A stretch of DNA of 64,000 nucleotides from Vulgatibacter sp. (lineage in GTDB: Bacteria > Myxococcota > Myxococcia > Myxococcales > Vulgatibacteraceae). The position numbers and the translations under genes were made by a program. The stretch is from NCBI GenBank assembly GCA_035565615.1, contig DATMSB010000114.1, forward strand, positions 989 through 64,988, read 5' to 3'. Positions within the stretch are counted from its first letter, which is position 1, and the number at the start of each line of letters is the position of its first letter. The notes under the pieces were generated by a model. That model was not told the origin of the DNA and made no database searches. It saw nothing but the letters and a program-made list of their open reading frames with translations. Shown here in pieces: positions 11,272 to 41,532 of this stretch.

Positions 11272-11470
11272 CGTGTACCTGCCGTGTGAGGAACGCTCCC
11301 TTTCTACCCGGCGGCGCCAGAAAGCGCAAGGATTCCAAATGGTTACACTGTATGCGCGGGTGGCCGCAGGTGCGAACGTGTGGTCGGGCGGCGCCGGCCC
11401 GCGGGCGTGGGGAGCGCGGAATCTCCCGTGAAATGCGTGACTTGCGCGTCCTCGGTCCGTGACATGGACG

Positions 11471-11486
11471 TGGGACAGACCCTGCT
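11471..11486 (+). promoter_or_regulatory. candidate sigma54 (-24/-12) promoter
   Basis: TGGGACAGACCCTGCT has GG-N10-GC spacing and lies 47 nt upstream of ATG 11534. Confidence 0.4.
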
Positions 11487-11533
11487 GCGAGGTGCGTGTA
11501 GGTAGTTGGGCCACGCAGAGAGGGAACGTCTCC

Positions 11534-12943
11534 ATGCTCAAGCAGAACGCACGCCTCGTCGATCTGGGGCTCCGTCTCACCGACTTGATCGTCCTCACGC
11601 TGACCCTACCGCTCGCGCACTGGGGCTACTCGGTCGCGCCCATGGCCCGCGCGGTCGCGCCGCCTCTGGCGGAGCTGTGGGGACCCTTCGTCGGCGTGCT
11701 CCTGCTGTGGATCGCGATCTCCGGCTCCTTCCAGGTGTACGGCGCCTACCGCACGCGGCGCATCTCCTGGGAGATCTTCCGCATCGCGAGGTCGATGGGC
11801 CTCCTCGCGCTGCTCGTGCTGGCCGGGATCTTCGTCGCCACGGATTCGAGGCTCCCTCGCATCTTCGTGGGCCTCTACTTCCTGGGAGCCTTCGCGATGA
11901 TGGCGGCGAGTCGTTTGGTGCTACGCGTGGCGGCCCGGCTGCTGCGCCGCCGCGGCTACAACGTGCGGCGGTACGCGATCGTCGGCGTGGGGATCGGCGC
12001 GGAGGAGATCGCGACCATCTTCGAGCGGCAGCCGCAGTGGGGCTACCGGCTGGCGGGCTACATCCTCCCCGACGGAAACGAGTTCGTGCTCCCGGGCGAG
12101 ACGATCCTCGGCACGCTGGACGAGCTCGATCGGATCCTCGATCAGCACGTGCTCGACGAGGTGGTCTTCGCGGTGCCGCGCGATCGGCTGCCCCTCATGG
12201 CCGACGCGATCCACACCTGCGAGGAGCAGGGCGTGCGCGTCGTCGTCTCCCTGCAGCCCCTCCAGCTCGGCACGGGGCGCATGTCGCTCCTCGAGCTCTC
12301 GGGCCTGTCGATGCTCGTCTTCGACCGCACCCCCAGCGATCCGATCGCGCTCGCGGCGAAGCGGGCCTTCGACGTGGTGGTCAGCGCGATCGCGCTGGTG
12401 GCGCTCTCCCCGCTCTTCGTCGCCGTGGCGGCGGCGATCAAGCTCGATTCGAAGGGGCCGGTCTTCTTCCGCCAGACCCGGGTGGGCCTCAACGGCCGCC
12501 CGTTCTCGATGGTGAAGTTCCGCTCCATGTACCAGGACGCGGAGGCGCGTCTGCAGGCCCTCCGCGATCAGAACGAGATGAGCGGGCCCGTCTTCAAGAT
12601 GAAGAACGATCCGCGGATCACGCGGGTGGGGCGCATCATCCGCAAGCTCTCCATCGACGAGCTGCCGCAGTTCTGGAACGTGCTCACCGGGACGATGAGC
12701 ATCGTCGGGCCCCGCCCGCCGCTGCCGGCCGAGGTGCGCCAGTACGAGCGGTGGCAGCGGCGGCGGCTCTCGGTGAGGCCGGGGATCACCTGCACCTGGC
12801 AGGTGAGCGGGCGGAACTCGATCCCGTTCGATCGCTGGATGGAGCTGGACCTCGAGTACATCGACAACTGGTCGCTCCAGCAGGACCTGAAGATCTTCCT
12901 GAAGACGATCCCGGCGGTGGTTTCCACGCGCGGGGCGCGTTGA
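11534..12943 (+). CDS. polyprenyl-phosphate glycosylphosphotransferase (WcaJ/EpsZ-type priming sugar transferase)
   Basis: N-terminal TMs, Rossmann-like middle domain, and the PGT core KRAFD...FRQTRVG...KFRSM...[21 protein letters not shown]...[12 protein letters not shown]...DLEYI. Confidence 0.93.
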
Positions 12944-12974: not shown

Positions 12975-13853
12975 TCAGAGCTCCGCGTCCAGGAAGCCGA
13001 CCAGAATCTTCTCGTATTCGTCCGGAGCCGCCTGATCGAATCCGCCGTGCCCCGCGCCCGGGACGAGCCAGGTCCGGCTGCCCGGCGGAAGCGCCTGCTC
13101 CAGCAGGGGGATCATCCACTGTCCCTCGTCCTCGGATCCCGCGATGAGGAGCACGCGCCTTGGCGCGATGGCGCCGAGCACGTCCACGGGTCGGACGGCG
13201 TCGAGATCGATGCCGCGCAGATAGTAGGGGAGGAGCGCCCCCAGCCACGAGGGCAGGCCGTGGCTCGGGAAGTCGAGCTCCAGGTTCTCGCGAAGGCTCG
13301 TCCCGGGCGAGAGGAGCACGACGGCGCGGAGCCCCCGGTCGCGGGCCGCCGCGTGGGCCAGCGCGTTGGCGCCGATCGAGAAGCCGATGGCACCGAGGCG
13401 CTCCCGATCCACCTCGGGCCGCCGGCGCAGCCAGTCGGCAGCGGCCTCGATGTCGAGCTGCTCCTTCTCGCCCATGGTGACGGTCGAGCCTTCGCTCTCA
13501 CCGTGGCCGCGCAGATCGAAGAGGAGCACGCCGTATCCGGCACGCACGAGGTAGCGGGCCTCCGGCAGGAGCCCGAGTCGCCCCTGACCGAGCCCGTGTG
13601 CGAGGAGCACGGTCTTGCCTAGGCGCGGCGGAACGAACCAGCCAAAGAGCTGCAGGCCGTCGCTGGTGCGGAACCGAGCGTCCTCGATCGGGCAGCTCTC
13701 ACCGGGCGGGCAGAGGTCCTTCGGCCGCTCCGGTCGGTCGCGCCCCACGTGGAACTGTTGGTCGCTTCGCATCGCGCCGCGGCCGATGAGGGCCGCAAAG
13801 GCGAGGACGCCGATGCCCATGAAGGCGACCAGGACGCTGCGAGCAGATCTCAT
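12975..13853 (-). CDS. alpha/beta-fold serine hydrolase with N-terminal membrane anchor/signal
   Basis: Hydrophobic N-terminus, [13 protein letters not shown], nucleophile GFSIG, then D (GSED) and H (GAGHG). ATG 13853 overlaps the PPTase stop. Confidence 0.85.
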
Positions 13854-14581
13854 GCGGCACCCTCCACGACCAGATCCTCTCCGCTCCACAAGTGGAGCTG
13901 CGGCTCGCCTCCCTCGACGGCGAGCGCGGCGGCGTACCCTTCCGGTACGGGGAGATCCCGCAGCCACCAACGGCGCGGGTCCATCCCTTCGAGGAGCCGG
14001 GCATCGTCCCGGGCGAGGGTCACGGAGAAGGTGGTGGTGGGTAGGAGGAAGCCGCCGCCCTCGGCCTTGAGGATCGCCTCCTTCCGCGCCCACAGGCGGA
14101 AGAAGGCATCGGCCTGCGCGGAGGGCTCCATTTCGAGGAGCGCCGCCTGCTCGCGGGACGAGAAGACGGTGCTCGCGATCGAATGGATATCGACCCCGCT
14201 GTGTCGCTCGACGTCGACGCCGAGCTCGCGGTTGCGCGCGATCGCCACGAGGACCAGGTCGCCGGAGTGCGAGACGTTGAAGCCGACGCGGACTCCTGCG
14301 TCGGGTGCGAGCACGGGCTTTCCGTGTGGACCTTCTGCCAGCGGCACGCGCACCGGGCTGCAGCCGAGGATGCGGCCGAGGAGGAGGCGAAGCGAGACGC
14401 GGCCCGCCCGAAACCGGCGGCGGTCGATCTCGGCCCGAAACGCAGCGGAGCGCCGCCTCTCCCCCTCGTCCAGAAGGCCCTCCAGCCCCGCACCCGCGCC
14501 GGCCCCCGAGACGTCGATCCCGATGACGTGGACCGACCCTTCCGCGAAGTCGTCTGCGGCGAGCGCGGGCCAGTCGTTCAT
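13850..14581 (-). CDS. Sfp-type 4'-phosphopantetheinyl transferase
   Basis: GKP, FNVSHS, GVDVE and WARKEA motifs. ATG 14581 overlaps the upstream stop. Confidence 0.93.
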   Translation of the reverse strand: MNDWPALAADDFAEGSVHVIGIDVSGAGAGAGLEGLLDEGERRRSAAFRAEIDRRRFRAGRVSLRLLLGRILGCSPVRVPLAEGPHGKPVLAPDAGVRVGFNVSHSGDLVLVAIARNRELGVDVERHSGVDIHSIASTVFSSREQAALLEMEPSAQADAFFRLWARKEAILKAEGGGFLLPTTTFSVTLARDDARLLEGMDPRRWWLRDLPVPEGYAAALAVEGGEPQLHLWSGEDLVVEGAA

Positions 14582-15435
14582 GTGCCAGTCCGCAAAGATT
14601 GCTTCTCGCCGAATCGTTCCTCGATCCAAACGGCGAGCCGCTCCACCAGGGTTCGGCGGTGGTCCAGCACCGAGAAGAGGTGGTCGGCCTCCGGAACGAA
14701 GATCTCGTCGATGTGGCCCCGGAAGTCGCCCGGCAACATCTCGAAGAACTGTCCGCCGTAGCCGTAGGTGGGGTTGGCGCCGCCGGAGTAGACGGCGAGG
14801 ATCTGCACGCCGCGGTGCACGAGCTCCTCGAGCTGCCGCGAGAGCAGCTCCGGCGTCGGATAGTCGCGTCTGAAGATGCGATCCTCCTCGCCGATGCCGC
14901 GCTGCTGCTCGGCGGTGAGGCGAAGCCGTGCGAGCACGCTCCGGGCATAGCGGCGCCAGCGGCGGAGCGAGAGCAGCCGGGTCATGTACCAGCGCACGAG
15001 GAAACGGCGGGTGCGATAGGCGTAGCCTTCGATCCAGATCATCCCGGCCACGCGGGGATCCGCGAGGGCGACGCCGTGGGCGACGTCGGTGCCGGAGCAG
15101 AAGCCGATCACCACGAATTGCCTGACCCCGTGCTTGCGTTCGAGGTGGTCCATCGCGTCGCGCATGTCGAGGACGGCGCGCTCGGACTCGCTGGCACCGC
15201 CGATGCGGACGGCGCTGTCTCCCATGCCGGAGAGATCGAAGCGAAGCACGGGGAAGCCACTCGCGGCGAGGCGTCGGGCCAGCTCCACCCAGATCCGTCC
15301 CGGCCCGACGCGGGTCTGGATTCCTACGTTCGTCAGCAGGATCGCCGGCGCGTTCGCGATCCCGGCGGAGCGCGGCTCCGTGAGGATGCCGGTCAGGCCG
15401 CGGCGGGGCCCGAAAGCTTCGACCCGCTCCTTCAT
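14578..15435 (-). CDS. alpha/beta-hydrolase with Cys nucleophile (resembles exosortase-A-associated hydrolase 1)
   Basis: RVGPGRIWVELARRLAASGFPVLRFDLSGMGDS, elbow GFCSG, His in EADHLF. ATG 15435 overlaps the upstream stop. Confidence 0.8.
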   Translation of the reverse strand: MKERVEAFGPRRGLTGILTEPRSAGIANAPAILLTNVGIQTRVGPGRIWVELARRLAASGFPVLRFDLSGMGDSAVRIGGASESERAVLDMRDAMDHLERKHGVRQFVVIGFCSGTDVAHGVALADPRVAGMIWIEGYAYRTRRFLVRWYMTRLLSLRRWRRYARSVLARLRLTAEQQRGIGEEDRIFRRDYPTPELLSRQLEELVHRGVQILAVYSGGANPTYGYGGQFFEMLPGDFRGHIDEIFVPEADHLFSVLDHRRTLVERLAVWIEERFGEKQSLRTGT

Positions 15436-16180
15436 ACCTTTCCCTCTTGGAGCGCCGCGACCAGGGTGCGCAGCACCTCGTCTCCCAGTGCGCCCGAGGG
15501 TGCCGCCGGCTGGATGCGGAGCTCGATCGCCCGCGCCTCCCTCTCCAGTTGTCCGGCGAGCTCCCGCTGGTCGGGCCTGTCGTCCGCGGCGAGCATCACG
15601 ACCCGGCCCTTGAACCCGTCCGCCGCTCCGAGCAGGTCGAGGCCCGAGAGATCCTGCCGCAGGCCGTGCACCATGGGATACCCGAGGACGGCGTTCTCGT
15701 CGCGGGGGACGGGATGGCGTGACCAGCGGCGGCGGTCCTCCTCGAGGTCCTCCAACTCCTGCAGGTAGCGGCTTCCCCGTACCACGGGCTCCCACAGGAC
15801 GACGTCGCCCACGTCCTTGCGGGCGCAGGCCACCTCCAGCGCCAGCGCCGCGCCCAGACGAAGCCCGACGAGCGAGACGCTCCGCAGGCCGGCGAGCCCC
15901 TTGAGCTCGTCGATTGCAGCGCCGACGTCCCTTCGCCACGTCGCGAGGGAGCCCTCCTCGAGCTCGCCGGCCGAATCTCCGGTTCCCGTGTAGTCGAAGC
16001 GAAGGACGTGGAAGCCCGCGTGGGCGAGGCGTACCGCCAGTTTCCGGAAAGGCCAGTGGGCGTGCTCGTACTCCATGAAGAGCGGATAGCAGAGCACCAC
16101 GCCCGAGCGGCGATCGGCCGCGTCGGGCGGGTGGTAGACACCGAAAAGATGGTGCTCGCCGGGACCGAAGAAGAAGGGTG

Positions 16181-16184
<4 letters not shown>
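15432..16184 (-). CDS. catalytically degenerate alpha/beta-hydrolase (resembles exosortase-A-associated hydrolase 2)
   Basis: LRFDYTGTGDSAG and elbow GLRLG (Arg at the nucleophile position), no obvious C-terminal catalytic His. GTG 16184 overlaps the NRPS stop (GTGA). Confidence 0.78.
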
Positions 16185-22591
<6,407 letters not shown>

Positions 22592-22611: not shown

Positions 22612-25600
22612 TCAGGCCTCGAGCTTGACGTAGCGTCCCGGCCGGTCCGGGTCCAGTACGTACCAGGCGGGATTGCCCTCCGGATCACGACCGAGCCGCG
22701 CTCCGGGAACTGGGGGACGGCTGGCGTCGAACTCCGTCACCTCCGGCCGCGCCGGCGCCGGGAGGAAGCCGCCGTCCTGCAGCTCCGCGATCGCTTCGCG
22801 GAAGGCAGCGATGATCCGATCCACGTCGGCGTCGGTGTGCGCGGTGGTCAGGAAGCAGGGGGCTCCTTCGTAGACGTGCACACCGCGATCGCGAAGCGCG
22901 TAGTAGAGGAGGTCGCCGAGCGGCCGAGCGTCCTCGTAGACGGGCCTCCACATCGAGGCGAAGCGCTCGATCCGGAGCGGCGCACCCGCGAGCGTGAAGT
23001 GCGCGTTGAGGGTCGACGTCAAGCGCTCAGTGCGAGCGTTCAGCTCTTCCTGCAGCGCGGGACCCCGCTCCACCAGGTGCAGGAGCACCGCCTTCGCCGC
23101 GGCCATCGCCAGCGGATGGCGGACGAACGTCCCGGCGAGGCAGGTCACGCCGACGGAGGGAGCCGAGTCGTCGCCGAACTGCCAGGCGCCCCCGTCGAGG
23201 GCGTCCAAGAAGCGCCGCGATCCCGCGATGACCCCGATCGGCATGCCGCCGCCGACCACCTCGCCGTAGACGGCGATGTCCGCCCGGACGCCGAAATGCG
23301 CCTGTGCCCCGCCGGGATGGGAGCGGAAGCCGGTGATCGCCTCGTCGAAGATCAGCGCGGTACCCGCCTCGGCCGTGATCGCCCGGAGCTCTTGGAGGAA
23401 CTCGTGCGGCTGGAGGTCCGGCCGTCGACCCTGCACCGGCTCCACGAGCACCGCCGCCAGCTCCGAGGCGCGGTCGCGCAGGACCTCGAGAGCTCGGGGC
23501 TCGCCGTAGTCGAGGACGATCGCATCCTCGGGCCCCTCGGACAGGATCCTCGTAGCCGCCGGCAGCGCGCTCGCGATGTCCTCGTCGAAGATGCCGTGCG
23601 AGCTGCCCGAGAAGAGGGCGACGATGCCGCGACCGGTGACGGCGCGGGCCATGCGCACGGCGCCGATCACCGCCTCGGTGCCGGTGTTGCAGAAGGCCGC
23701 GCGCTCCATTCCCGTGAGCTCGCAGACGAGCGAGGCGACCTCGCCGGCCAGCGGCGTCTGCAGGCCGAGCTCGAACCCGTTCTCGAGTTGCTCCCGAATG
23801 GCGCGGACCACCGGCTCGGCGCCGTGGCCGAGGAGGTTCGAACCGAAGCCATTCAGCACGTCGACGTACTCGTTCCCGTCGACGTCCCAGACGCGCGACC
23901 CGCGGGAGCGGACGACGACGAGAGGGTAGGCGAGCTCCTTGGTCGCGGGGCGAAATCCGCTCACCACCCGAGGGTCGGCGAGGCGATCCCGGGACGCCTG
24001 TGCCGCCGCCTTCGAGCCCGACGTGCGCGCGCCGTACCGGCGGACGAAGCTGTCGAGGCGCGCCTTCTGAACCGGCGTGAGTTCCGGGGCGGACCCCGCG
24101 TGGGGGCGGGCGACGGTGCCGAAGGCCTTCTTCACGTCCTGGCGGACGGGACCCCGCTCCTCGTCCGACGCATCTACGGCCGCCCTCGCCGCTGCGGTCG
24201 CTGCAGGAACGGGTGCCTGGGCAGGATCCTCTTGCGTGAGGGGCTCGAGCGGGGCGTGCGCTTCCTGCGAAGCGGGTGCCACCCCGAGGACCGCGAGCTG
24301 CCGGGCCATGAGTTGGAGCTGTTGCTGGATCAGCGCCTGGATGTCGATCCCGTGGGCGGTGGTGGCCGGGAATCCTTCGAGGGTGGGGAAGGGGGTGGCC
24401 GTGGAGAGGTCGTTCACGGCGGGCAGGCCGGCGGTGGGGACGCTGCCTGCGGCGGGCAGGGAGGTGCCCTCGACCGGCGGCGCCTTCCGCTCCGATGCCG
24501 GTGCAGGCTCCGCCGGGAGCGAGGCATCCAGGTGGGCGGCGAGGGCATCCAACGTCGGGAGCTCCGTCATCAACTGGCGGAAGGTGATCGAGGCCGAATA
24601 CTTGCGTGAGATGGAGCGGGCGAGCTGCGTCAGCATCAGCGAATCGAAGCCTAGCTCCAGGAACGTGCCCGAGGGCTCGAGGTGCTCGCTCTCGATTCCG
24701 GAGATGTCGGCGCACAGCGCCCGCAGCTCGTCGAGCAGGCGGCTGATGCGGCCGGTGTCGCGGGGTTCCATGGCGGGAGGTGCCTCCGCGCTGCGGGGGG
24801 AGGGGGAAGCGGCTTCGGGAAGCGCGTTGGTCGTGACCCAGTGGCGCCGTCGCTCGAAGGGATAGGTGGGAAGTGGCAGGCGGTACCGCTCCCCGTAGGC
24901 GTGCAGGCTTTCGAAATCGAGGGGAAGGCCGGCGCAGAAGATCTCCCCCGCAGCACCGAGAAGTGAGGTCCACTCGTCGTCGCCCATGGCGGGGTTGCGC
25001 AGCGAAGCGACGCCGAGCTGGTCGCCGCGCAGCCGCTGCCGCGCGAGGGTCGTGAGCGTCGCCCGGGGACCGACCTCGAGGAGCAGGCGCGACGGCTCCT
25101 CCAGGAGCACGCCGAGCGCGTCCGCGAAGCGTACCGGCTCGCGAAGGTGGCGGGACCAGTACCCCGGATCGGTGGCCTCGCGCTCGCTCATCCAGCCGCC
25201 GGTGACGGTGGAGACGATGGGCAGGCGCGGCGCATGGAGCCGGACGGAGCGGACGGCCTCCTCGAAGGGTTCGACCACCGGATCCATCATCGGCGAGTGG
25301 AACGCGTGGGAGGTGACCAGCGGGCGGCAGGCGACGTCCTCCGCCTCGAGGTCCTTGCACAGCGATTCGAGCGCCTCGACCGGGCCCGCGACCACGCACT
25401 GGGTGGGTGCGTTCAGGGAGGCGATGGCGAGGTCGGGCGGGAGTCGCTCGCGGATGGCATCCGCCGAAGCGCGCACCGACAGCATGCCGCCCGGCGGGAG
25501 CGATTGCATGAGGCGACCGCGCTCGGCGACGAGGGCGAGGGCATCCTCCAGCGAGAACACCCCCGCGATGCAGGCGGCGACGAACTCCCCGACGCTGTGT

Positions 25601-28600
25601 CCCGCCATCGCCTCCGGACGGATGCCCCAGCCGAGCCAGATCTGCGCCAGTGCATATTCGACGACGAAGAGCGCGGGCTGGGTGAACGAGGTCTGGCGAA
25701 GAAGGTCCGCGGCCTCTTCCTCTCCACCAGGCGCCGGATAGAGGACGTCGCGCAGGTCGCGTCCGAGCTTCTCTTCGAGGAGGCCGGCGCAGCGGTCGAC
25801 CACCGAGCGGAAGGTCGGGTCCCAGCGGTAGAGGCCCTCGCCCATCCCCACCGATTGCGCACCCTGGCCCGGGAAGAGGAAGGCAGGCTTGGGCGGCGGC
25901 GTCGCCGCACGACGCGAGCTCACCCGTGCCGGATCCTCGCCGCGAAGGAGCTGGGCGAGCTCCCCGGTGGTAGCGGCGACCACGGCCCGGCGGTAGGGGA
26001 GCGCCCGCCGTCCCACGCCGAGCGTGTAGGAGATGTCGGCGAGGGGCCGATCCGGCTGCCGGCCGGCGTCCTCCGCGAGGCGGGAGGTCGCCTCCTCGAG
26101 CGCCTCGGGTGTGCGGCCGGAGAGGACCACGAGCTGGCGCGGGAGCGCGGCGCCGGAGGGGGCGCGGGCCGGCGCCTCCTCGAGCACCACGTGCGCGTTC
26201 GTTCCCCCGACGCCGAAGGAGCTGACGCCGGCGCGCCGCGGGCTCTCGCCGCGGGGCCAGGGGCGCCTCTCGCTCGTCACCACGAAGGGGCTCGCGGCGA
26301 AGTCGATGTGGGGGTTGGGCCGCTGGAAATGGAGCGTCGGGGGCAGCTCCTCGTTCTCGAGGGCGAGCACGGTCTTGATCAAGCCGGCGACGCCGGCAGC
26401 CGCCGTGAGATGACCGAAGTTGCTCTTGATGCTGCCGAGCTGGCAGAAGCCCGCGTCCTGCGTTCCGAGGCGGAAGGCACGCGTGAGCGCCTCGACCTCG
26501 ATGGGATCGCCGAGCGGCGTAGCCGTACCGTGCGCCTCCACGTACGAGATCGATCGCGGATCGATGCCGGCGTTGGCGTGCGCCATCGCGATGGCCGCCG
26601 CCTGCCCCTCCACGCTCGGCGCGCTGAAGCTGGCCTTGCCGCCGCCGTCGTTGCTCAGGCCCACGCCACGGAGGACGGCGCGGATGGGATCGCCGTCCCG
26701 GAGCGCGTCCGAGAGTCGCTTGAGGACCACTGCGCCGGCACCGTCGCTGAAGACCGTTCCGCTCGCCGCGGCGTCGAAGGGCCGGCAATGGCCGTCGGAC
26801 GAGAGCATCCCGCCTTCGTCGTAGACGTGCCCGGTGTGTTGGGGGACGGTGATCGCCGCTCCACCGGCGATCGCCATGTCGCATTGCCCGGTCCGAAGCG
26901 CGTGGAATGCCTGGGCCACCGCCACGAGCGAGGTCGAGCACGCCGTATGAATGCTGATCGCCGGGCCGCGGAGATCGAGGCGATGGGCGACGCGGGTGGC
27001 GACGTAATCCTTCTCGCTGGCGACCATCGCCAGGAGGTCGCCGACCTTCTCGATCACGTCCGGCCGCTGCGCCACCTGATTGGGGAAGTAGGTGTTGTTG
27101 TGTACCCCAGCGTAGACGCCCACGGCGCCGCAGATGCACTCGGGCACGTAGCCCGCCGACTCCAGCGCGGCCCACGCCACCTCGAGGAAGACCCGCTGCT
27201 GGGGATCGAGGACCTCCGCCTCGGCCGGCGAGATGCCGAAGAACGCCGCGTCGAACCGATCGGCGTCGGCGAGGATCCCGCGGGCGCGGACGTAGCGCGG
27301 ATCGCTGGCGAGGGCCTTGGGCACGGCGGGATCGAGCTCGTCGGGACCGAAGAAGGTGATCGACTCGACGCCTTCGACGAGGTTGTTCCAAAGCTGGTGC
27401 AGATCGGCGGCGCCCGGGAAGCGGGCCGCCATGCCGACGATGGCCACCGGCTCGTCGTCCCGGCCCCTCGCGCCGGCCGCCCTGGCGAGCAGCGCTCGAT
27501 CCAAGGCCGATCCGTCGCCAACCGCGGCGAGGATGCTACGGATGGTCGGATGCTGGAAGAGCTGGGGGATGGTCACCGCCTCGAGGCCCTCGCGCTGCAT
27601 CCGCCCGACCGCCTCGACGGCCAACAGCGAAGTCCCGCCCAGATCGAAGAAGCTGTCGTCGACGCCGATGGTGTCGATGCCGAGAACCTCTCTCCAGATC
27701 CCGGCCACGAGGGCCTCGTCGGAGGTGGACGCGGCGGCGAAGGGAACGGCGAGTGCGGGGCGTTCCCGGCCCGGGGCGGGCAGCGCCTTGCGGTCGATCT
27801 TCCCCGAGGGGGTGCGAGGGAAAGCGTCGACCACTACGATGCGGCTCGGGACCAGGTACTCGGGGAGCCGCTCCAGCAGGAAGTTGCGCAGGGCGGTCGC
27901 CGCGCCGTCGAGGGCGTCGCCGAGCTGCACGTAGCCATACAGCCGCTTGTCGCCCGGTCGCTCCTCGCGGACGAGGGCGACGGCGTGGGACACCGACGGA
28001 TGGGACGCGAGCGCGACCTCGACCTCGCCGAGCTCGATCCGGAAGCCGCGGACCTTCACCTGATCGTCGGTGCGCCCCAGAAATTCCAGGGCGCCGTCGT
28101 CGCTTCTTCGGACGAGATCGCCGGTCCGGTAGAGGCGCTCCAACGCATCGCCGTCGCCGGTCACCAGGACGAAGCGCTCCGCCGTCAGCTCGGGCTGGTC
28201 GAGGTAGCCGCGCGCCAGGCAGCGACCGCCGAGGTAGAGCTCCCCCGGCGAACCGTCGGGGACAGGGCGGAGCCCATCGTCCAGGACCCGGGCGATGATG
28301 CCGGGCAGCGGCCGGCCGATCGGCGGGAGCGCGGGCCAGGTGTCCGGCGGACCCTCGAGGGTGAACGCCGTCGCGACGTGGGTCTCGGAGGGGCCGTAGT
28401 GGTTGTGGAGCGTCGCCTCCGGCATGCGGCGGAAGAAGGCGGCGATGGCCCGCGTGATCTGGAGCTGCTCGCCGGCGGTCACGACCTCGCGCAGGTGGCT
28501 GGGGACGCGCGACGCGTTCTCGGCCGCCTCGGCGAGGGCCTGGAGCGCGACGAAAGGGAGGAAGACGCGCTCGATCCGCTCCTGCTCCAGGAGCTCGAGG

Positions 28601-29277
28601 AGCCTCATGGAGTCGAGGCGATCCTCCTCGTCGAGGAGGACCAGCGTCCCGCCGGCGCCGAGCGTCGAGAAGATCTCCTGGAAGTGCACGTCGAAGCTGA
28701 GCGGTGCGAACTGCAGCGTGCGCCCCTCGCCAGACGAGGATGCCTCGAGCTGCCAGGTGACGAGGTTCGCCAAGGGACCGTGGGGCATGGCGACGGCCTT
28801 GGGCCGCCCCGTCGATCCCGAGGTGTAGATGACGTACGCGAGATCTTCGCTCCCGGGCTCGGGGAGATCGAGCCCGGCCGCCTCCCCGAGGAAGGGCAGC
28901 TCCACCACCTCCGCCACGGGAGGCAGCGAGGCGCGCAGCGCGCTCGTGGTGATCAGAATCCGGGCGCCGCTGTCTTCGAGCATGAAGGCGAGGCGGTCCT
29001 GCGGATAGGTGGGATCGAGCGGGACGTAGGCGCCGCCGGCCATGAGGACGCCCAGGACCGCGACGATTCCGTCGAAGGATCGAGGCAGGCAGATGGCGAC
29101 GGGGACGTCGGCCTCGACGCCGAGGCGCCGCAGGTGCCGCGCGAGCGATCGGGCGCGCGCCTCCAGCTCTCGATACGAGAGCGAATCACCAGCGTGGACG
29201 AGCGCTGCGCGGTCCCGCGTGCGACCGGCTTGGGTCACGAACCTCTTCACACACGTCGGGTCGTATGGCGCAGACAT
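22612..29277 (-). CDS. hybrid NRPS/type I PKS: A(Pro)-T-KS-AT-ACP-class III aminotransferase
   Basis: A domain FDVHFQE/NHYGPSETHVA (code DVQFVAHVAK, Pro-type by eye). T FFDLGGTSL. KS TACSTS/HGTAT/KSNFGH intact. AT GHSVG + HAFH (malonyl type). ACP LGFDSL. GSA-like aminotransferase (DVDGNEYVD, IFDEAITGFR, GGGMPIG). Confidence 0.95.
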   Translation of the reverse strand: MSAPYDPTCVKRFVTQAGRTRDRAALVHAGDSLSYRELEARARSLARHLRRLGVEADVPVAICLPRSFDGIVAVLGVLMAGGAYVPLDPTYPQDRLAFMLEDSGARILITTSALRASLPPVAEVVELPFLGEAAGLDLPEPGSEDLAYVIYTSGSTGRPKAVAMPHGPLANLVTWQLEASSSGEGRTLQFAPLSFDVHFQEIFSTLGAGGTLVLLDEEDRLDSMRLLELLEQERIERVFLPFVALQALAEAAENASRVPSHLREVVTAGEQLQITRAIAAFFRRMPEATLHNHYGPSETHVATAFTLEGPPDTWPALPPIGRPLPGIIARVLDDGLRPVPDGSPGELYLGGRCLARGYLDQPELTAERFVLVTGDGDALERLYRTGDLVRRSDDGALEFLGRTDDQVKVRGFRIELGEVEVALASHPSVSHAVALVREERPGDKRLYGYVQLGDALDGAATALRNFLLERLPEYLVPSRIVVVDAFPRTPSGKIDRKALPAPGRERPALAVPFAAASTSDEALVAGIWREVLGIDTIGVDDSFFDLGGTSLLAVEAVGRMQREGLEAVTIPQLFQHPTIRSILAAVGDGSALDRALLARAAGARGRDDEPVAIVGMAARFPGAADLHQLWNNLVEGVESITFFGPDELDPAVPKALASDPRYVRARGILADADRFDAAFFGISPAEAEVLDPQQRVFLEVAWAALESAGYVPECICGAVGVYAGVHNNTYFPNQVAQRPDVIEKVGDLLAMVASEKDYVATRVAHRLDLRGPAISIHTACSTSLVAVAQAFHALRTGQCDMAIAGGAAITVPQHTGHVYDEGGMLSSDGHCRPFDAAASGTVFSDGAGAVVLKRLSDALRDGDPIRAVLRGVGLSNDGGGKASFSAPSVEGQAAAIAMAHANAGIDPRSISYVEAHGTATPLGDPIEVEALTRAFRLGTQDAGFCQLGSIKSNFGHLTAAAGVAGLIKTVLALENEELPPTLHFQRPNPHIDFAASPFVVTSERRPWPRGESPRRAGVSSFGVGGTNAHVVLEEAPARAPSGAALPRQLVVLSGRTPEALEEATSRLAEDAGRQPDRPLADISYTLGVGRRALPYRRAVVAATTGELAQLLRGEDPARVSSRRAATPPPKPAFLFPGQGAQSVGMGEGLYRWDPTFRSVVDRCAGLLEEKLGRDLRDVLYPAPGGEEEAADLLRQTSFTQPALFVVEYALAQIWLGWGIRPEAMAGHSVGEFVAACIAGVFSLEDALALVAERGRLMQSLPPGGMLSVRASADAIRERLPPDLAIASLNAPTQCVVAGPVEALESLCKDLEAEDVACRPLVTSHAFHSPMMDPVVEPFEEAVRSVRLHAPRLPIVSTVTGGWMSEREATDPGYWSRHLREPVRFADALGVLLEEPSRLLLEVGPRATLTTLARQRLRGDQLGVASLRNPAMGDDEWTSLLGAAGEIFCAGLPLDFESLHAYGERYRLPLPTYPFERRRHWVTTNALPEAASPSPRSAEAPPAMEPRDTGRISRLLDELRALCADISGIESEHLEPSGTFLELGFDSLMLTQLARSISRKYSASITFRQLMTELPTLDALAAHLDASLPAEPAPASERKAPPVEGTSLPAAGSVPTAGLPAVNDLSTATPFPTLEGFPATTAHGIDIQALIQQQLQLMARQLAVLGVAPASQEAHAPLEPLTQEDPAQAPVPAATAAARAAVDASDEERGPVRQDVKKAFGTVARPHAGSAPELTPVQKARLDSFVRRYGARTSGSKAAAQASRDRLADPRVVSGFRPATKELAYPLVVVRSRGSRVWDVDGNEYVDVLNGFGSNLLGHGAEPVVRAIREQLENGFELGLQTPLAGEVASLVCELTGMERAAFCNTGTEAVIGAVRMARAVTGRGIVALFSGSSHGIFDEDIASALPAATRILSEGPEDAIVLDYGEPRALEVLRDRASELAAVLVEPVQGRRPDLQPHEFLQELRAITAEAGTALIFDEAITGFRSHPGGAQAHFGVRADIAVYGEVVGGGMPIGVIAGSRRFLDALDGGAWQFGDDSAPSVGVTCLAGTFVRHPLAMAAAKAVLLHLVERGPALQEELNARTERLTSTLNAHFTLAGAPLRIERFASMWRPVYEDARPLGDLLYYALRDRGVHVYEGAPCFLTTAHTDADVDRIIAAFREAIAELQDGGFLPAPARPEVTEFDASRPPVPGARLGRDPEGNPAWYVLDPDRPGRYVKLEA

Positions 29278-30112: not shown

Positions 30113-32053
30113 ATGTGCGGGATTGCAGGGATTGTCGGGCGGTTGGACGAGAGCGGTCGTACCGCCCTCGGGCGCATGAGCGAGGCGATGCGCCACCGCG
30201 GCCCCGACGGTCACGGCGTGTGGGAGTCGGATCGGGACGAGAGGGGCTGGGGCGTCCTGCTGGCGCACCGCCGCCTCGCGACGCTCGACCTCTCTCCCGC
30301 GGCGGCGCAGCCGATGACGGATCCGGTCACGAACCGCACGATCGTCTTCAACGGGGAGATCTACAACTACGTCGAGCTGCGCGATCGCCTGGCCTCGGAG
30401 GGCCAGCACTTCGAGTCGAGCGGCGATACGGCGGTGATGCTGCGAGCGCTCGGCCTGCATGGGCCCGAGGCGTTGGGGTGGCTCCGGGGCATGTTCGCCT
30501 TCGCGTGCTGGAACCCCGAGAGTCGGCGGCTCCTGCTCGCACGCGACCCGCTCGGGATCAAGCCGCTGTACGTGGCGCGCAACCCCGATCCGAAGGGCAG
30601 CTGGTCGATCGCGTTCGCTTCGGAGCTGCGTGCGCTCCTCACCTCGGGGTTGTTGGGGAAGCCGAGGCTCGAACCGGGCGCCGTCGCATCGGTCATCTGG
30701 AACGGCTTCGTGGTGGGGCCGCAGACCGCGGTCGCCGGCGTCGAGCTCCTCCCCGGTGGGCGGCTCCTCGAGCTCGACGGGAATGGTCGCGAGATTGCGA
30801 GCTCCGACTTCTGGACGATCCCTCCCGTCCAGCCTGGTCCATCGCTGGACGAGGAAGAGCTGGGGTCCATCCTGGAAGAGAGCGTGCGGCTTCACCTCTC
30901 GAGCGACGTGCCCCTGGCGGTGTTCCTGTCCAGCGGCGTGGACTCCTCGGCCGTCGCCAACCTGGCCCAGCGCACATCGGGCAACCAGGTGCACACCTTC
31001 ACCCTGGCCTTCGAGTCCGCCGAGATGAACGAGGGGCCGGTGGCCCGCCAGATCGCGGAGGCGATCGGCTCCGCTCACCACGAGGTGGTGCTCTCCGAGG
31101 GCGAATTCGTCGAGCGGCTCGAACCTGCGCTCGACAGCCTCGATCAGCCGACCTTCGACGGCCTGAACTCCTACTTCATGTCGCGCGCGATCCACGACGC
31201 GGGCTTCAAGGTCGCGCTCGTGGGTACCGGAGGCGACGAGCTCTTCGGCGGCTACCGATCCTTCCGCGATCTCCCGGTGCTCCAGCGTTGGTCGAGGCGA
31301 ACTCGGTTCCTCCCCAAGCGGCTCCTGGCCCAAGCCGCGCATCTGGCGCTCGGGTCGTCGTCGAGGCGCGGAGCTTCGATCCCGCCGCAGACGCGCTGGG
31401 CCAAGCTCCCCCACTTGATCCGGCGGGGCGAGGATCTCCTCGGCCTCTACCAGCTCGCCTACGCCCTCTTCCTGCCGGAATTCCAGGGCCACCTCCTCGA
31501 CCCCGAGTTCGGCGAGGTCCTCCACGATGGCATGTCGGCGGCGGCGCGCGACCGGCTGGCAGGGGAGACGCGCTCCCGCTCGCCCTTGTCGGCTTTGAGC
31601 GTCATGGAGCTGCGGCTCTTCCTGGGTGAGAGGCTCCTCCGGGACAACGACGCCGCCAGCATGGCCGCGTCCATCGAGCAGCGGCTCCCGTTCGTGGATC
31701 AGGAGCTTTTCCAGAGCGTCGATCGGCTGCCGGACGCCGTGCGCTACGATCCGCTCGGGAAGAAGGCGATCCTGCGGCGGCTCGGGCTGCGCGGGCTGCC
31801 GCAGAAGCTGTTCGACCGGCCCAAGCGCGGCTTCGAGCTGCCGTACGACACGTGGATTCGGCGGGGCCTGCGGAAGTCCATCGACGAGACCATGCGGGAT
31901 CCCGAGGCGGCGCGGGCCGCGGGGTTGCGGCCCGAGGGAGTCCGGCGGCTCTGGCAGGGGTTCCTCGAGGGCGCTCCGGGCCTTTACTGGTCCCGCGTCT
32001 GGGCGATCTTCGTCCTTCTGCGCTGGTGCCAGAGGAACCAGGTCGTGCGCTGA
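30113..32053 (+). CDS. asnB: asparagine synthase (glutamine-hydrolysing)-family amidotransferase, polysaccharide-locus type
   Basis: N-terminal MCGIAG (Cys2), HRGPD, FNGEIYN, RDPLGIKPLY, LSSGVDSS, GTGGDELFGGY, RPKRGF. Confidence 0.92.
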   Translation: MCGIAGIVGRLDESGRTALGRMSEAMRHRGPDGHGVWESDRDERGWGVLLAHRRLATLDLSPAAAQPMTDPVTNRTIVFNGEIYNYVELRDRLASEGQHFESSGDTAVMLRALGLHGPEALGWLRGMFAFACWNPESRRLLLARDPLGIKPLYVARNPDPKGSWSIAFASELRALLTSGLLGKPRLEPGAVASVIWNGFVVGPQTAVAGVELLPGGRLLELDGNGREIASSDFWTIPPVQPGPSLDEEELGSILEESVRLHLSSDVPLAVFLSSGVDSSAVANLAQRTSGNQVHTFTLAFESAEMNEGPVARQIAEAIGSAHHEVVLSEGEFVERLEPALDSLDQPTFDGLNSYFMSRAIHDAGFKVALVGTGGDELFGGYRSFRDLPVLQRWSRRTRFLPKRLLAQAAHLALGSSSRRGASIPPQTRWAKLPHLIRRGEDLLGLYQLAYALFLPEFQGHLLDPEFGEVLHDGMSAAARDRLAGETRSRSPLSALSVMELRLFLGERLLRDNDAASMAASIEQRLPFVDQELFQSVDRLPDAVRYDPLGKKAILRRLGLRGLPQKLFDRPKRGFELPYDTWIRRGLRKSIDETMRDPEAARAAGLRPEGVRRLWQGFLEGAPGLYWSRVWAIFVLLRWCQRNQVVR

Positions 32054-33672: not shown

Positions 33673-34824
33673 TTGCCGATTACCACACACCCCACGGCGT
33701 CATCGCGATTGGCTCCTTCATCCCCGCCATTGCGGATCGTTCAGATGGGTCCGACGGGACCCAAGGGCGGGGTTTCAGCTGTCGTGACCCAGCTCTCAGC
33801 GGAGCTGGCCCGGCAGGGACATCAGGTACTGGTTATCGGGGACGGCGCGAACAAGCTGAAGCCAGCGCTCGAGGCAGGGGCGAGCTACGAGGAGGTCATC
33901 TATTCTCGCAGATTGCGGGTGCTCGCAGCTCAGCTGGGCCGTGTGCGTAAATTGCTTCGAGAGTTCGAACCCGACGTGATCCACGTTCATGGTCGCGCCC
34001 AGGCCTTGTTGGTTCGCTGGTCAGGTCTCCAGCCCGATTGGTTTACTCTCCACAACACCCATTTCACTGAGCAAGTATCGTGGTATGACCGGGGCGCCTT
34101 GCGTCGCTTTCTGTCACCGCTGGGACGCAAGATATTCGCCCTCGACCCACGAGCCATCGACTACCTTCGCGTGCACTTCGGTGTTGATTCGGAGCGAGTC
34201 CACATCGTTCCGAACGGTGTGGATTGCAACGCCTTCGTTCCCCTCTCGGAACCCGACCGTAGTGCTGCACGAGCCAGATTTCGAGTCGCTCCAGACGACG
34301 TACTCGGGGTCTTCGTTGGTCGCTTTCACGAGCAGAAGAACCCCCAGGCCGTGATCAAGCTCGCTGCAGCGGCCAAAGCACGAGGGATGAGCGCCCTCAA
34401 GACCATTATGATCGGAGAGGGGCCTCTCGAGGGTGAGGTTCGTTCGATGATCCAAGAGCGGGGGCTTTCTGACCGAGTTCAACTCCTTGGATGGTCTGAT
34501 CCGCGAATCGCGATTCAAGCCGCAGATGTCTTCTTGATGCCGAGCCGATATGAAGGGTTTCCGCTCGCTGCGGTCGAGGCGCTGGCGTGTGGGACGCCCG
34601 TCCTACGAACGCGAACGGGGGGGGTTGCCCAAATGATTGTGGAGGGGCAGACGGGTTGGGGATGCGATCCAGAAGACGACGACGACTTCATTTCCAAGTC
34701 GCTCGACGTGCTCAGTCGTCCTGAAGATCTCGGGAAGATGCGCGCCGCTTGTAGGAAGCACGCGGTCGAACAGTTGAGCCTCAGCGTTCAGGCGCACCGC
34801 ACCGTTCAGGCTTATCGGTCATAG
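33673..34824 (+). CDS. GT4-family glycosyltransferase
   Basis: GGVS..V, IHVHG, FVGRFHEQKN, FLMPSRYEGFPLAAVEALACG. Start approximate. Confidence 0.9.
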   Translation: MPITTHPTASSRLAPSSPPLRIVQMGPTGPKGGVSAVVTQLSAELARQGHQVLVIGDGANKLKPALEAGASYEEVIYSRRLRVLAAQLGRVRKLLREFEPDVIHVHGRAQALLVRWSGLQPDWFTLHNTHFTEQVSWYDRGALRRFLSPLGRKIFALDPRAIDYLRVHFGVDSERVHIVPNGVDCNAFVPLSEPDRSAARARFRVAPDDVLGVFVGRFHEQKNPQAVIKLAAAAKARGMSALKTIMIGEGPLEGEVRSMIQERGLSDRVQLLGWSDPRIAIQAADVFLMPSRYEGFPLAAVEALACGTPVLRTRTGGVAQMIVEGQTGWGCDPEDDDDFISKSLDVLSRPEDLGKMRAACRKHAVEQLSLSVQAHRTVQAYRS

Positions 34825-34915
34825 GCTTGAAATATTCAGAGCATTGACCGGCACCCTCTCGATCATGAAGCCGGTCATCGCTCCAGGTGAAAATCGAGTT
34901 GGGTGCCGGGCAACA

Positions 34916-36439
34916 CTACCCGGCTCGTCGGCTCAATACGCTGCGAAGTGCTGCAAGGTCTTCTCGGCTGAGAAGTCCTGTCGCAATCGCCATCCCGCAG
35001 AAAACGACCAGAAAAACCGGAATTCCGACCAATGGAGTCGACGTAGGTAGCGAGAGCACGACAAAGGCAGCGACGCCAGCCGACAGAGCCGATCGGAGAA
35101 AGTCGACGAACATCCTTGGCCTTAGAACACCACTCGGAACCAAAGAGGCGGTCCCCACGAGTACGACCAGTTCACCAAGCGCACTCGCGGCAAGTGCCCC
35201 GATGGCGCCGTTTCCCCACCTGGCCTGGGACAATGGAATGAAATGCCAGTTGAGACCAGCGACCAGGGCCATCGTCACGACACGAATGGCAGCGGCCTGG
35301 TTCGTCCGACCCACAATGATTGCAACTGCGCCGAACAACATGTTCAAGAAAATGAGAAACAGACCGACTGACATGAGCTGAAGGATCGTCGTCGACGGAC
35401 CATACATTTCCCGCCCGTAAATCAATCCAATCGCGACGTCTGCGAATAGCGCCGTCCCAGCTGCGACCAATACGCCCAGAACCAGAACTGGCCGAAGGGC
35501 GTTGGCAAGCTCCTCACGCAGCATTACCGGATCGCTGGCCGCCCTGGATAGTACGGGGAACGATGCGGTGATGAGGATCGAGGCCGGCATGACGAGCGTG
35601 TTCGTGATTGTCCTTGCAGCGCCGTACCATCCAAGAACCTCGGAGATCGCCAGTGCGGAGAGCATCAATGTCTCTACATACAATTGGGCGTGAGAGAGCA
35701 CGCCCGTCACGAGCACCGGTGCTCCTTCCCGCAAGAGGTGGCGGACGGACTCTCCGGCGACTCGGGCACGAGCAAAACCGGCTCTGTGTGCTTGGCGAAT
35801 CGAGTATATGAGCGCGCCGGTCCCGGCTACACCAAGTGATAAGATCACCGAAACTAGACGCCCACCCAAACCAAACGCCGCAAGCACGATTCCGACGTGC
35901 ATCACCTTGTTGACTACAGTAGCACGGGCGTCGAGATCCATTCGCTGATGACCGCGGAAGATCTGGCCATAGGTGTGCAATAGCGAATTCGGAATCCATG
36001 CGACGATCGTGAGGGCCATCAACACCTGCGTCCGCGTATCATAGTCGAGGCCTCTCACGACAAGTACGCCGATCACCGTTGCCGGGACAGCCAGAACCGT
36101 TCGGATCACGATGGCGCTGCCCAATAGCCTCGATGTTAGATCGGGAAACCTCGCCACATCCCGCATGAGAATCGAGCCTTGACCCCACTCGACGAAGGTA
36201 TGAGCGAAGTAGGTGGATGTTAGCAAGAAGAAGTAGAGGCCGAAGTCATTTACTCCAAGGGTCCTTCCGAGTTGAGAATTCAATAGAATCGAGAGAACAG
36301 TTGTGATCACTTGTCCGGATAACAGATGAAATGCACTGCGCGCTACTTTTCCTCGCGCAGGCTGTCCGGATGCCGGATTCGCGTCTGCCTCCGTCGACGT
36401 TGTCGAATCTTCCTGTCTCTGAGCGGAAACCTGGCTCAT
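34916..36439 (-). CDS. wzx: Wzx polysaccharide flippase
   Basis: Multi-TM MOP-fold protein: LGRTLGVNDFGLYF, VLGWYGAA, FPVLSR, GAIGALAAS. Confidence 0.88.
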   Translation of the reverse strand: MSQVSAQRQEDSTTSTEADANPASGQPARGKVARSAFHLLSGQVITTVLSILLNSQLGRTLGVNDFGLYFFLLTSTYFAHTFVEWGQGSILMRDVARFPDLTSRLLGSAIVIRTVLAVPATVIGVLVVRGLDYDTRTQVLMALTIVAWIPNSLLHTYGQIFRGHQRMDLDARATVVNKVMHVGIVLAAFGLGGRLVSVILSLGVAGTGALIYSIRQAHRAGFARARVAGESVRHLLREGAPVLVTGVLSHAQLYVETLMLSALAISEVLGWYGAARTITNTLVMPASILITASFPVLSRAASDPVMLREELANALRPVLVLGVLVAAGTALFADVAIGLIYGREMYGPSTTILQLMSVGLFLIFLNMLFGAVAIIVGRTNQAAAIRVVTMALVAGLNWHFIPLSQARWGNGAIGALAASALGELVVLVGTASLVPSGVLRPRMFVDFLRSALSAGVAAFVVLSLPTSTPLVGIPVFLVVFCGMAIATGLLSREDLAALRSVLSRRAG

Positions 36440-36506
36440 TCCACCACCGATGGCGATGTCTTATGGTAAGCCAAAATCATTCTGGCCATTCTCGCAACAA
36501 ACCTGC

Positions 36507-38060: not shown

Positions 38061-38208
38061 ATGCCACGTAATAGTAGTAGATTACTAAAAAAGTAAGGAA
38101 CCAGGCGACCATTCTCAGGCTACCCTTTACCGGATCGGGATGTCTTGCCGCGATCGCCGGGATTGCAAAGGTCATCCAAATTATGGACATCAGTAGAAGT
38201 GTTTTCAC
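38026..38208 (-). CDS. small 60-aa two-TM membrane protein overlapping the wzy start
   Basis: MKTLLLMSIIWMTFAIPAIAARHPDPVKGSLRMVAWFLTFLVIYYYYVAYG: helix-(RHPDPVKG)-helix. GTG start, 35-nt overlap with wzy. Confidence 0.65.
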   Translation of the reverse strand: MKTLLLMSIIWMTFAIPAIAARHPDPVKGSLRMVAWFLTFLVIYYYYVAYGHTRFFVPHG

Positions 38209-38345
38209 CTATATGCCGGTCCTATAGCGCAGAGCATCTTCGCATCGAGTGCCGGAACCGGTGGAGGCCGGTTTGAAATGGTATTGGCTCCCGCCGGAGG
38301 CTTGCCTGGGGCTCAAGCACTTTCGGAGGTGATGAGCGCTGCAGT

Positions 38346-41045: not shown

Positions 41046-41532
41046 CGAAACCTCCAGCCGTTCCAGAATCCGGCCCCCAAGGTCTATTGCGGAGTCGCAC
41101 TGGATGATAGCTCCAGCGAACACTTCGTCGGTTGGGCCCTGGCGCGCCCAAGATAGCATCCTTTCGGCGGCATGCACGCTCGCCTTGCGTGCTGGCCAAC
41201 GCCAACGGCTCATGCCACGGCGGCGTCAGGGCATGCCTCCGAGCCCGGATCCAGTGGCGCAGGCTCTTCGCGGCCGCGGGCGTCGCGGACCCCCTGCCGG
41301 CAACCGCGGTGACGAATTTGCGGCTCTCGGCCGAGCTGACCGGTCAGACGGTGACCAGCCGCGTTTCGAGGCACTTCCCTATAGGGGCCGCGCTCCAGGG
41401 AGCTGATAGAGCGGATCGAATGGGAGGCGCGAGCCCCGTCGCGGAGGCCTGGCTGGCTAGGTATGGCGACCCGTGGTAGGGTGCCGCGCTGCCGAACAAG
41501 AGCGCCCGATCCGATCTTCTGTGAAGCCCCTC

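Follow-up and report, generated by a model that had tools for sequence, protein, structure and literature searches.

The 64,000 nt of Vulgatibacter sp. (Myxococcota) DNA analysed here (assembly GCA_035565615.1, contig DATMSB010000114.1, positions 989 to 64,988; hereafter the window, G+C ~70%) encode two adjacent alpha/beta-fold proteins immediately downstream of an NRPS (non-ribosomal peptide synthetase) that possesses no thioesterase domain: H_A, with Arg at the nucleophile position, and H_B, with Cys. Both genes are part of a minus-strand gene set that spans ~29.3 kb down to 13.0 kb of the window and comprises a first megasynthase, a second synthetase (NRPS2), H_A, H_B, a 4'-phosphopantetheinyl transferase (PPTase), and a third alpha/beta hydrolase (H_C). 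The window derives from a soil metagenome. When RNA evidence was sought, its sequence was traced solely to DNA runs, from soil and other metagenomes, and an Rfam scan of the window identified no RNA family. The features of the gene set are as follows:

22612..29277, minus strand: first megasynthase, A(Pro-like)-T-KS-AT-ACP-aminotransferase (Pfam: AMP-binding, PP-binding, KS, AT, PP-binding, class-III aminotransferase)
16181..22591, minus strand: NRPS2, C-A(Gly)-T-C-A(Gly)-T (Pfam: two Condensation, two AMP-binding, two PP-binding)
16307..16519, minus strand: T2, the terminal carrier domain of NRPS2, with the phosphopantetheine-bearing Ser2061 at 16411..16409, in GGHSL
16184..16243, minus strand: tail at the C-terminus of NRPS2, SFAERMLGRLWRGFAGQKRS, a helix motif of basic amphipathic character (...ERMLGRLWRGFAGQKRS)
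15432..16184, minus strand: H_A, alpha/beta-fold, 250 amino acids, with GLRLG at residues 107-111 (15866..15852) and Arg109 at 15860..15858
14578..15435, minus strand: H_B, alpha/beta-fold, 285 amino acids, with GFCSG at residues 111-115 (15105..15091), Cys113 at 15099..15097, and His252 at 14682..14680
13850..14581, minus strand: PPTase, Sfp/HetI-type (NCBIfam 4PPT_HetI, 124.6 bits; Pfam ACPS, AASDHPPT_N)
12975..13853, minus strand: H_C, third alpha/beta hydrolase (Pfam Peptidase_S15, Abhydrolase_1, Hydrolase_4)

The four junctions between NRPS2, H_A, H_B, the PPTase, and H_C are all 4-nt start/stop overlaps: the GTG start codon of H_A overlaps the stop codon of NRPS2 (GTGA, 16184..16181), and H_B, the PPTase, and H_C each start with an ATG that overlaps the preceding stop codon (ATGA). 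Based on Pfam, neither of the two synthetases of the window encodes a thioesterase domain; NRPS2 also lacks a reductase and a terminal C domain, with no further Pfam domain identified at E <= 1e-5, and the 41 residues that are C-terminal of T2 (2096-2136) leave no room for a thioesterase. The first megasynthase has an intact KS Cys motif (HTACSTS), AT Ser motif, and Ser motifs of both carrier domains. The first-pass annotation had described a thioesterase-less NRPS with two alpha/beta-fold genes right after its final T domain, one with Arg at the nucleophile site (GLRLG, 15852-15866) and no clear His, the other with a Cys nucleophile (GFCSG, 15091-15105) and a His in EADHLF; the Pfam architecture, the GTGA overlap, and the 41-residue tail bear this out, the coordinates of both motifs are exact, and the alignments described below agree with the residue assignments.

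The conservation of H_A and H_B was assessed across the 120 best homologues of each protein, which mostly share 40-50% identity with the window protein. In H_A, Arg109 falls exactly on the Ser of GxSxG in profile alignments to solved serine hydrolases, and is kept in 120/120 homologues (mean column identity of the alignment 49%); no column with a conserved His occurs after strand beta8 in the homologue alignment, and conservation fades beyond residue 184. The catalytic triad is absent because the nucleophile position is occupied by Arg and there is no conserved His; H_A is thus, as judged from its sequence, a dead hydrolase by the canonical definition, with a would-be active-site region that is still conserved, and is probably a non-catalytic adaptor subunit. 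Cys32 of H_A was considered as a relocated nucleophile and rejected: this residue is invariant in 120/120 close homologues and is kept in fusions of H_A to H_B, but is replaced by Val or Leu in three fusions of a T domain to H_A (both types of fusion are described below), which indicates that Cys32 is not essential. In H_B, Cys113 superposes on the Ser of GxSxG and His252 (in EADHLF) on the catalytic His of solved serine hydrolases in the equivalent profile alignments. Cys113 is present in 120/120 homologues, and His252 and Gln229 are also invariant (mean column identity 42%); at such overall identities the retention of Arg109 and Cys113 throughout exceeds chance. H_B is probably the catalytic, acyl-accepting subunit.

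Both proteins exceed the Pfam gathering scores for Hydrolase_4 and Abhydrolase_6 (alpha/beta-hydrolase fold), and the AlphaFold2 models of both are confident alpha/beta folds (mean pLDDT 93.3 for H_A and 90.7 for H_B). Among solved structures, capped esterases and lipases come nearest (Foldseek, E 1e-11 to 1e-15); searches by sequence and by fold returned generic Ser hydrolases only, with no Cys/Arg homologue. Comparison of the two profiles relates H_A to H_B with 97.7% probability (E 1.9e-12) across the N-terminal 131 columns, which points to an active/inactive paralogous pair. The cap helices of H_B (residues ~143-182, window 14920-15040) are extremely rich in Arg and Trp (AYRTRRFLVRWYMTRLLSLRRWRRYARSVLARLRL), and the consensus of the H_B family keeps Arg or Trp at several of these sites; the cap may offer a surface to an acidic carrier domain or to anionic lipids.

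Relatives of H_B were identified in 507 stretches of a one-genome-per-species collection, and an exhaustive profile search (E <= 1e-30) returned 2,999 clusters at 50% identity. For the comparison of loci we used the 80 best, which span Myxococcota, Gemmatimonadota, Acidobacteriota, several Gammaproteobacteria, and Caldimonas, among others. H_A is encoded immediately upstream of H_B on the same strand in 77 of these 80 loci, and polyketide synthase (PKS) or NRPS domains are present in 70 of the 72 loci where this could be judged. A T domain immediately precedes H_A in 39 loci (median gap 150 nt), and the tail of the terminal T domain is no longer than 108 residues, too short for a thioesterase, in 75 of 78 cases. 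The three exceptions are in-frame fusions in which T and H_A form one polypeptide, with the Arg elbow intact and H_B encoded separately (L059, 8955-10000; L063, 8929-10000; L068, 8973-10000; Granulosicoccaceae and an uncultured bacterium); because T and H_A are one polypeptide in these three loci, H_A would hold the slot of a cis thioesterase.

Fusions of H_A to H_B, in that order, are also found. Four occur in NRPS-type loci (P0287, P0319, P0331, and P0349) and keep GLRxG in the N-terminal half and both GLC[ST]G and [DE]H in the C-terminal half; the fusion in P0287 begins 2 nt past a C-A-T NRPS gene. In Azospirillum and Mycetohabitans a fused protein of 596-616 amino acids, annotated as 'alpha/beta fold hydrolase', is encoded in an amino acid--[acyl-carrier-protein] ligase operon that consists of an ACP, an acyl-CoA-dehydrogenase-like protein, the amino acid--[ACP] ligase (seryl-tRNA-synthetase-like), DUF1839, a GH2 glycosidase, and the fused H_A-H_B (L085, 5303-12954, on an Azospirillum oryzae plasmid; L086, 4947-12948, in Mycetohabitans endofungorum; also L088 and L095). 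Cupriavidus and Burkholderia loci match the fusion by tblastn, and those of Cupriavidus also match the ligase, DUF1839, or GH2 genes. The fused H_A-H_B is a candidate downstream enzyme for this orphan carrier-protein amino-acid ligase pathway, and the common denominator of all settings of the pair is a thioester on a carrier protein. Taken at the level of gene organisation, the adjacency, the 4-nt overlaps, and the fusions support the view that H_A and H_B work together, and the position of the pair supports the view that it belongs with the last carrier domain of assembly lines that lack a thioesterase.

These data bear on the possibility that the adjacency in the window is coincidental and that the hydrolases act on exopolysaccharide (e.g. 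as esterases) independently of the NRPS, as might be supposed from an exopolysaccharide-rich window and from nearest named families that are annotated as exosortase- or exopolysaccharide-associated. Given the adjacency in 77/80 loci, the PKS/NRPS linkage in 70/72 loci, mostly without exopolysaccharide genes, the in-frame T-H_A fusions, and N-termini of H_A and H_B that by eye are not signal peptide-like, this explanation, already disfavoured, is highly improbable. Two further features recur at the compared loci: some genomes have a second H_A/H_B pair inside the same locus (L018, 17029-18291; L055, 10901-12549), and a Cupin_8/JmjC-type oxygenase gene adjoins the pair in unrelated taxa (L001, 8254-9204; L004, 14150-14671; L072, 8055-9086), which is possibly a tailoring hydroxylase that acts on the carrier-bound chain.

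The top NCBIfam match of H_A is TIGR03101, 'hydrolase 2, exosortase A system-associated' (109.5 bits, E 2e-31, residues 4-147 aligned; cut-off 202.75), and that of H_B is TIGR03100, 'hydrolase 1, exosortase A system-associated' (85.9 bits, E 2.7e-24, residues 29-272 against model positions 26-273 of 274; cut-off 168.45). The partner of the TIGR03100/TIGR03101 proteins is a free acyl-CoA ligase plus ACP, and in the TIGRFAMs description the two are said always to be neighbours; in the window, H_B adjoins H_A by its 4-nt overlap as the hydrolase-1-type neighbour of a TIGR03101-like protein. In natural H_A-H_B fusions the N-terminal half matches TIGR03101 and the C-terminal half matches TIGR03100. 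Relatives and fusions score 79-113 bits against TIGR03101, and all fetched homologues score 52-113 bits, under the cut-offs of TIGR03100 and TIGR03101; these low-scoring homologues include a protein named 'exosortase A-associated hydrolase 2' by JGI, a gammaproteobacterial locus without NRPS (L079), and plasmid or chromid matches. Because the scores are about half the curated cut-offs, the profiles place H_A and H_B as a sister group of TIGR03101/TIGR03100 and not as members. No exosortase family or PEP-CTERM gene was identified among the window open reading frames (ORFs) scanned with Pfam and NCBIfam, and the XrtA-type matches of the window are sub-threshold only, to the associated glycosyltransferase and amidotransferase models. 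Thus, of the resemblance to TIGR03100/TIGR03101 proposed in the first-pass annotation, what stands after the profile search is that these are the best-matching families for both proteins, at about half the cut-offs and in a window without an exosortase. The two families are hypothetical equivalogs (NCBIfam) that are paired, like H_A and H_B, but the partner of H_A and H_B is a modular NRPS/PKS; an extension of function to TIGR03100 and TIGR03101 would be an extrapolation. Against other families, H_A, H_B, and H_C have no match to the thioesterase family PF00975 at E <= 0.01, and the match of H_B to dienelactone hydrolase PF01738 (17.3 bits) is under the 21-bit cut-off.

The C-terminal tail of NRPS2 has a hydrophobic moment of 0.91 and a charge of +4. 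By eye, most of 45 terminal-T tails from several phyla have a Pro/Ala-rich linker followed by a short basic amphipathic helix (other examples are ...GRLFRKVQKTLRGS and ...RVLRGFKGLFGGK), and 18 of the 45 pass when hydrophobic moment and charge are held to a strict numeric cut-off. Direct fusions of T to H_A lack the motif, a pattern that fits a docking helix; the tail of NRPS2 could be a docking element.

On this evidence, we consider it somewhat probable that H_A and H_B constitute a two-subunit, trans-acting off-loading module in place of the missing thioesterase, which in some organisms exists as one fused protein. Of the earlier proposal that a Cys/Arg pair replaces the missing thioesterase, the pairing, the link to the terminal T domain, and the Cys-His site of H_B are supported; the profile scores place the two proteins outside the TIGR families, and a general linkage to exopolysaccharide genes is not seen. 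The roles follow from the fusions: because these join T to H_A and H_A to H_B, H_A would be the adaptor for the terminal carrier and H_B the catalyst. The arrangement of the genes, the invariance of the residues, the fold, the fusions, and the lack of a thioesterase are observed; the individual chemical steps are inferred. H_A would bind T2, with the basic amphipathic helix at the C-terminus of NRPS2 as the probable contact, and its invariant Arg may bind either the anionic phosphopantetheine arm or an anionic acceptor. The Cys113 thiolate, with His252 as its partner and Asn221 and Gln229 to orient it, would then attack the T2 thioester to give an acyl-S-Cys enzyme. In the final and least certain step, an incoming amine or hydroxyl, and not water, would resolve the acyl-enzyme and place the peptide onto a cytoplasm-accessible acceptor; in the window, the most plausible choice is an intermediate from the neighbouring exopolysaccharide pathway. 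Transfer is suggested over hydrolysis by the strict Cys, the second pocket that contains Arg109, the precedent of CmaE and SyrC, and the recurrent, non-universal embedding of the pair in polysaccharide loci.

CmaE and SyrC have an alpha/beta fold and a Cys in the active site. Aminoacyltransferases of the CmaE type pass aminoacyl groups from one T domain to another; like the proposed H_B, CmaE and SyrC act in trans and take an aminoacyl group off a carrier thioester without hydrolysis (PMC8748450). However, they are single proteins with no dead Arg partner, and deliver to a second carrier in mid-pathway, whereas H_A and H_B are encoded after the last carrier. The existence of such Cys-dependent shuttles between carrier domains also fits an editing or shuttling role for the pair (as a type II thioesterase or CmaE-like enzyme), with release either spontaneous or catalysed by H_C, which has a normal Ser nucleophile (GFSIGA) and a C-terminal His, and is translationally coupled to the PPTase in the operon. 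We assign a low probability to this explanation: H_C is seen in a minority of related loci (tblastn tables) whereas the pair is nearly universal, and the hydrophobic N-terminal segment of H_C suggests a membrane or periplasmic location. Further, the operon contains no stand-alone PP-binding gene, all four carrier domains being inside the two synthetases, and hence no free-standing acceptor carrier protein of the kind that CmaE/SyrC-type delivery uses; the T-H_A fusions place the pair at the last carrier domain specifically; and PF00975 is not matched.

The chain that H_A and H_B would receive from T2 can be predicted from the specificity codes of the A domains, and from these only. Both A domains of NRPS2 have the code DILQLGMVWK, which is close to the Gly signature DILQLGLIWK; the related loci contain DILQLGMVWK 45 times, and the A domain that immediately precedes the pair most often has this code. 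The loading A domain of the first megasynthase has the Pro-like code DVQFVAHVAK. The idea that the loading domain is a fatty acyl-AMP ligase and the product a lipopeptide was refuted by this code, which is that of an amino-acid A domain. The first megasynthase is predicted to make a beta-amino acid starter (a 3,4-diamino-type acid) from an amino acid and malonate, and for the chain on T2 the prediction is a 3-amino acid derived from Pro and then Gly-Gly, which would be small and cationic with no lipid moiety. We know of no described product for an A-T-KS-AT-ACP-aminotransferase architecture followed by Gly-Gly. In relatives the loaded residue is often of the Val type (DAFWLGGTFK). Another class of NRPS that accompanies the pair starts with an A domain whose code, DISDITGVWK, is unassigned (L002, L005, L015, L024, L034, L036, L038, L039, L046, L047, L050, L053, L078, and L081); the readable second A domains of this class are usually degenerate, mostly without Asp235 and Lys517 (e.g. 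PLVFLGL-GR), and such a domain is, on its code, probably inactive or non-canonical.

An amine within the chain also makes a cyclising release conceivable, in which the beta-amino group or the pyrrolidine N of the chain would capture the acyl-Cys113 intermediate to give a small lactam or a head-to-tail dimer. The internal amine would be supplied by the aminotransferase-domain module, which accompanies the pair in many loci; iturin-type lines close their ring with such an amine, and Cys thioesterases are found in beta-lactone and beta-lactam NRPS lines. We regard cyclisation as quite improbable, since some lines served by the pair have no aminotransferase domain (L004, L058, and L064), the single-aminoacyl carrier cassettes of Azospirillum and Mycetohabitans cannot form such a ring, and the 10-membered ring of three residues would be strained.

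Beyond the operon, the window contains the following context genes:

11459..12943, plus strand: polyprenyl-phosphate sugar-phosphate transferase (Bac_transf and CoA_binding_3), convergent with the operon
30113..32053, plus strand: asparagine-synthase-type amidotransferase (TIGR01536, 386 bits), divergent from the operon
33673..47230: Wzx/Wzy-type exopolysaccharide genes (GT4, Wzy_EPS-like polymerase, EpsY-like exporter, GT2, EpsH-like glycosyltransferase, stp1-like glycosyltransferase)

The arrangement with the Bac_transf gene is repeated in an 82%-identical relative (L090). The amidotransferase scores 329 bits against the XrtA/PEP-CTERM model TIGR03108, below the cut-off of 817, and the best NCBIfam matches of the exopolysaccharide genes are all under the curated cut-offs. 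Across window positions ~32000-41500, which encode the GT4, the Wzy-type polymerase, and a 955-amino-acid Big_2 protein (38346-41213), the G+C fraction falls from ~0.70 to 0.57-0.63; this block has the look of a serotype-like section of the exopolysaccharide locus that is exchanged horizontally. Near the operon are a GAF-PAS-GGDEF diguanylate cyclase (6387-8243, plus strand) and a large SNF2-family helicase (2113-6117, minus strand), both of which are also present in L090; through the diguanylate cyclase, c-di-GMP could have a part in the control of the locus.

As in the window, polysaccharide genes are next to the cassette in loci of Gemmatimonadaceae and Variovorax; a single strand in Variovorax encodes the synthetases, the PPTase, H_A, H_B, Wza, and Wzc, together with an initiating transferase, glycosyltransferases, and a flippase. 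In an earlier neighbourhood analysis, the carrier-ligase cassette was predicted to attach an amino acid to a cell-surface sugar, and this independent prediction of a glycan role supports the transfer reading (PMC2922099). Known systems that move a carrier-loaded amino acid to a surface glycan or lipid are Dlt (D-alanylation of teichoic acid) and AlmEFG (glycine onto Vibrio lipid A), and Gly is the thioester residue in most pair-associated lines; however, the transfer enzymes of these systems (the MBOAT protein DltB with DltD; AlmG) are unrelated to the pair, and glycan genes are absent from most pair loci. We suggest tentatively, as a possibility about which we are doubtful, that the pair acts as a transferase of peptidyl or aminoacyl groups and delivers Gly-terminated, carrier-bound chains to an envelope glycan or lipid-linked intermediate at the inner membrane face, as an NRPS-fed counterpart of D-alanylation.

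Several observations weigh against an off-loading module of this kind or against transfer as its reaction. The canonical acid position of H_B (221) is not conserved, being Asn here and Asp or Glu in 89/120 homologues; an Asn is acceptable with a thiol nucleophile, as in the papain-type Cys-His-Asn arrangement. The Cys nucleophile is also compatible with hydrolysis or cyclising release, and H_C, with its normal Ser and in the same operon, could be the true releasing enzyme. The putative H_A/H_B heterodimer is deduced from the fusions and the gene order only, and the tail of NRPS2 could instead be a membrane-binding anchor. Polysaccharide genes are present within 10 kb in 13/80 related loci only, which rules out a universal linkage of the pair to exopolysaccharide genes; the Corallococcus operon consists of just two synthetases and the pair; and unbiased clustering of flanking ORFs revealed nothing conserved alongside the pair except PPTases and genus-level synteny, and no conserved acceptor-supplying gene. 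Because of the 13/80 count, the minimal Corallococcus operon, and the lack of a universal partner gene, hydrolytic and cyclising release are live alternatives, and H_C may contribute.

In the hydrolytic case the pair would be a plain thioesterase in which H_B, with H_A as a structural partner, hydrolyses the T2 thioester to a linear peptide acid with water as the acceptor. The positional and fusion evidence fits this equally, as do the lack of a conserved acceptor-supplying gene, the absence of nearby polysaccharide genes from most loci, and the ordinary esterases and lipases that are the nearest solved structures. We nevertheless judge it unlikely: Ser is never tolerated in place of Cys113 (Cys in 120/120 homologues), although Ser suffices for hydrolytic release; the conserved, Arg-bearing pocket of H_A has no obvious role in hydrolysis; and Cys-dependent alpha/beta enzymes that act on carrier thioesters are typically transferases or cyclases.

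The proposed transfer module can also be set against other known enzymes. NRPS/PKS thioesterases (type I in cis and type II in trans; PF00975) share with the pair the alpha/beta fold and the slot after the terminal carrier, which the pair occupies by fusion in three loci, but thioesterases have a Ser nucleophile, whereas the pair has a Cys and comprises two subunits, one of which is without nucleophile and His. The type II PKS ketosynthase/chain-length-factor is an analogy only: it likewise combines an active Cys subunit with a paralogue in which the catalytic residue is replaced, encoded by adjacent, coupled genes, but it has a thiolase fold and forms C-C bonds. The myxofacycline cluster was compared and differs in having a thioesterase and no hydrolase pair. 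Full-text literature searches found no publication on the pair or the cluster type. Trans-acting hydrolase-fold enzymes at NRPS termini are known; a widespread two-subunit version that has an invariant Cys in the catalyst and an invariant Arg in its dead paralogue, with various fusions of the two to one another and to the carrier domain, appears to be undescribed.

Chain release decides the product of an assembly line, and genome mining repeatedly meets the puzzle of lines that have no thioesterase. The two-gene signature of GxRxG followed by GxC[ST]G...[DE]H, present in ~500 loci and ~3,000 clusters, would mark the release step of one class of thioesterase-less lines, and it links three orphan systems: the NRPS pairs, the fused form of the ligase cassettes (in rhizobia, Azospirillum, and Burkholderiales), and TIGR03100 and TIGR03101 as the nearest named families. 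The signature offers a testable function for relatives of two 'hypothetical equivalog' families, with precise residues to mutate and, in Corallococcus, a culturable host with a minimal four-gene operon. If transfer by the pair to an envelope glycan or lipid-linked intermediate is true, the NRPS-linked pairs, the fused form of the ligase cassettes, and the exosortase-A-linked hydrolases 1 and 2 would share one reaction, and all of these orphan families would gain a function; if the acceptor is a surface glycan, this would be a new route by which bacterial polysaccharides are decorated with non-ribosomal peptides.

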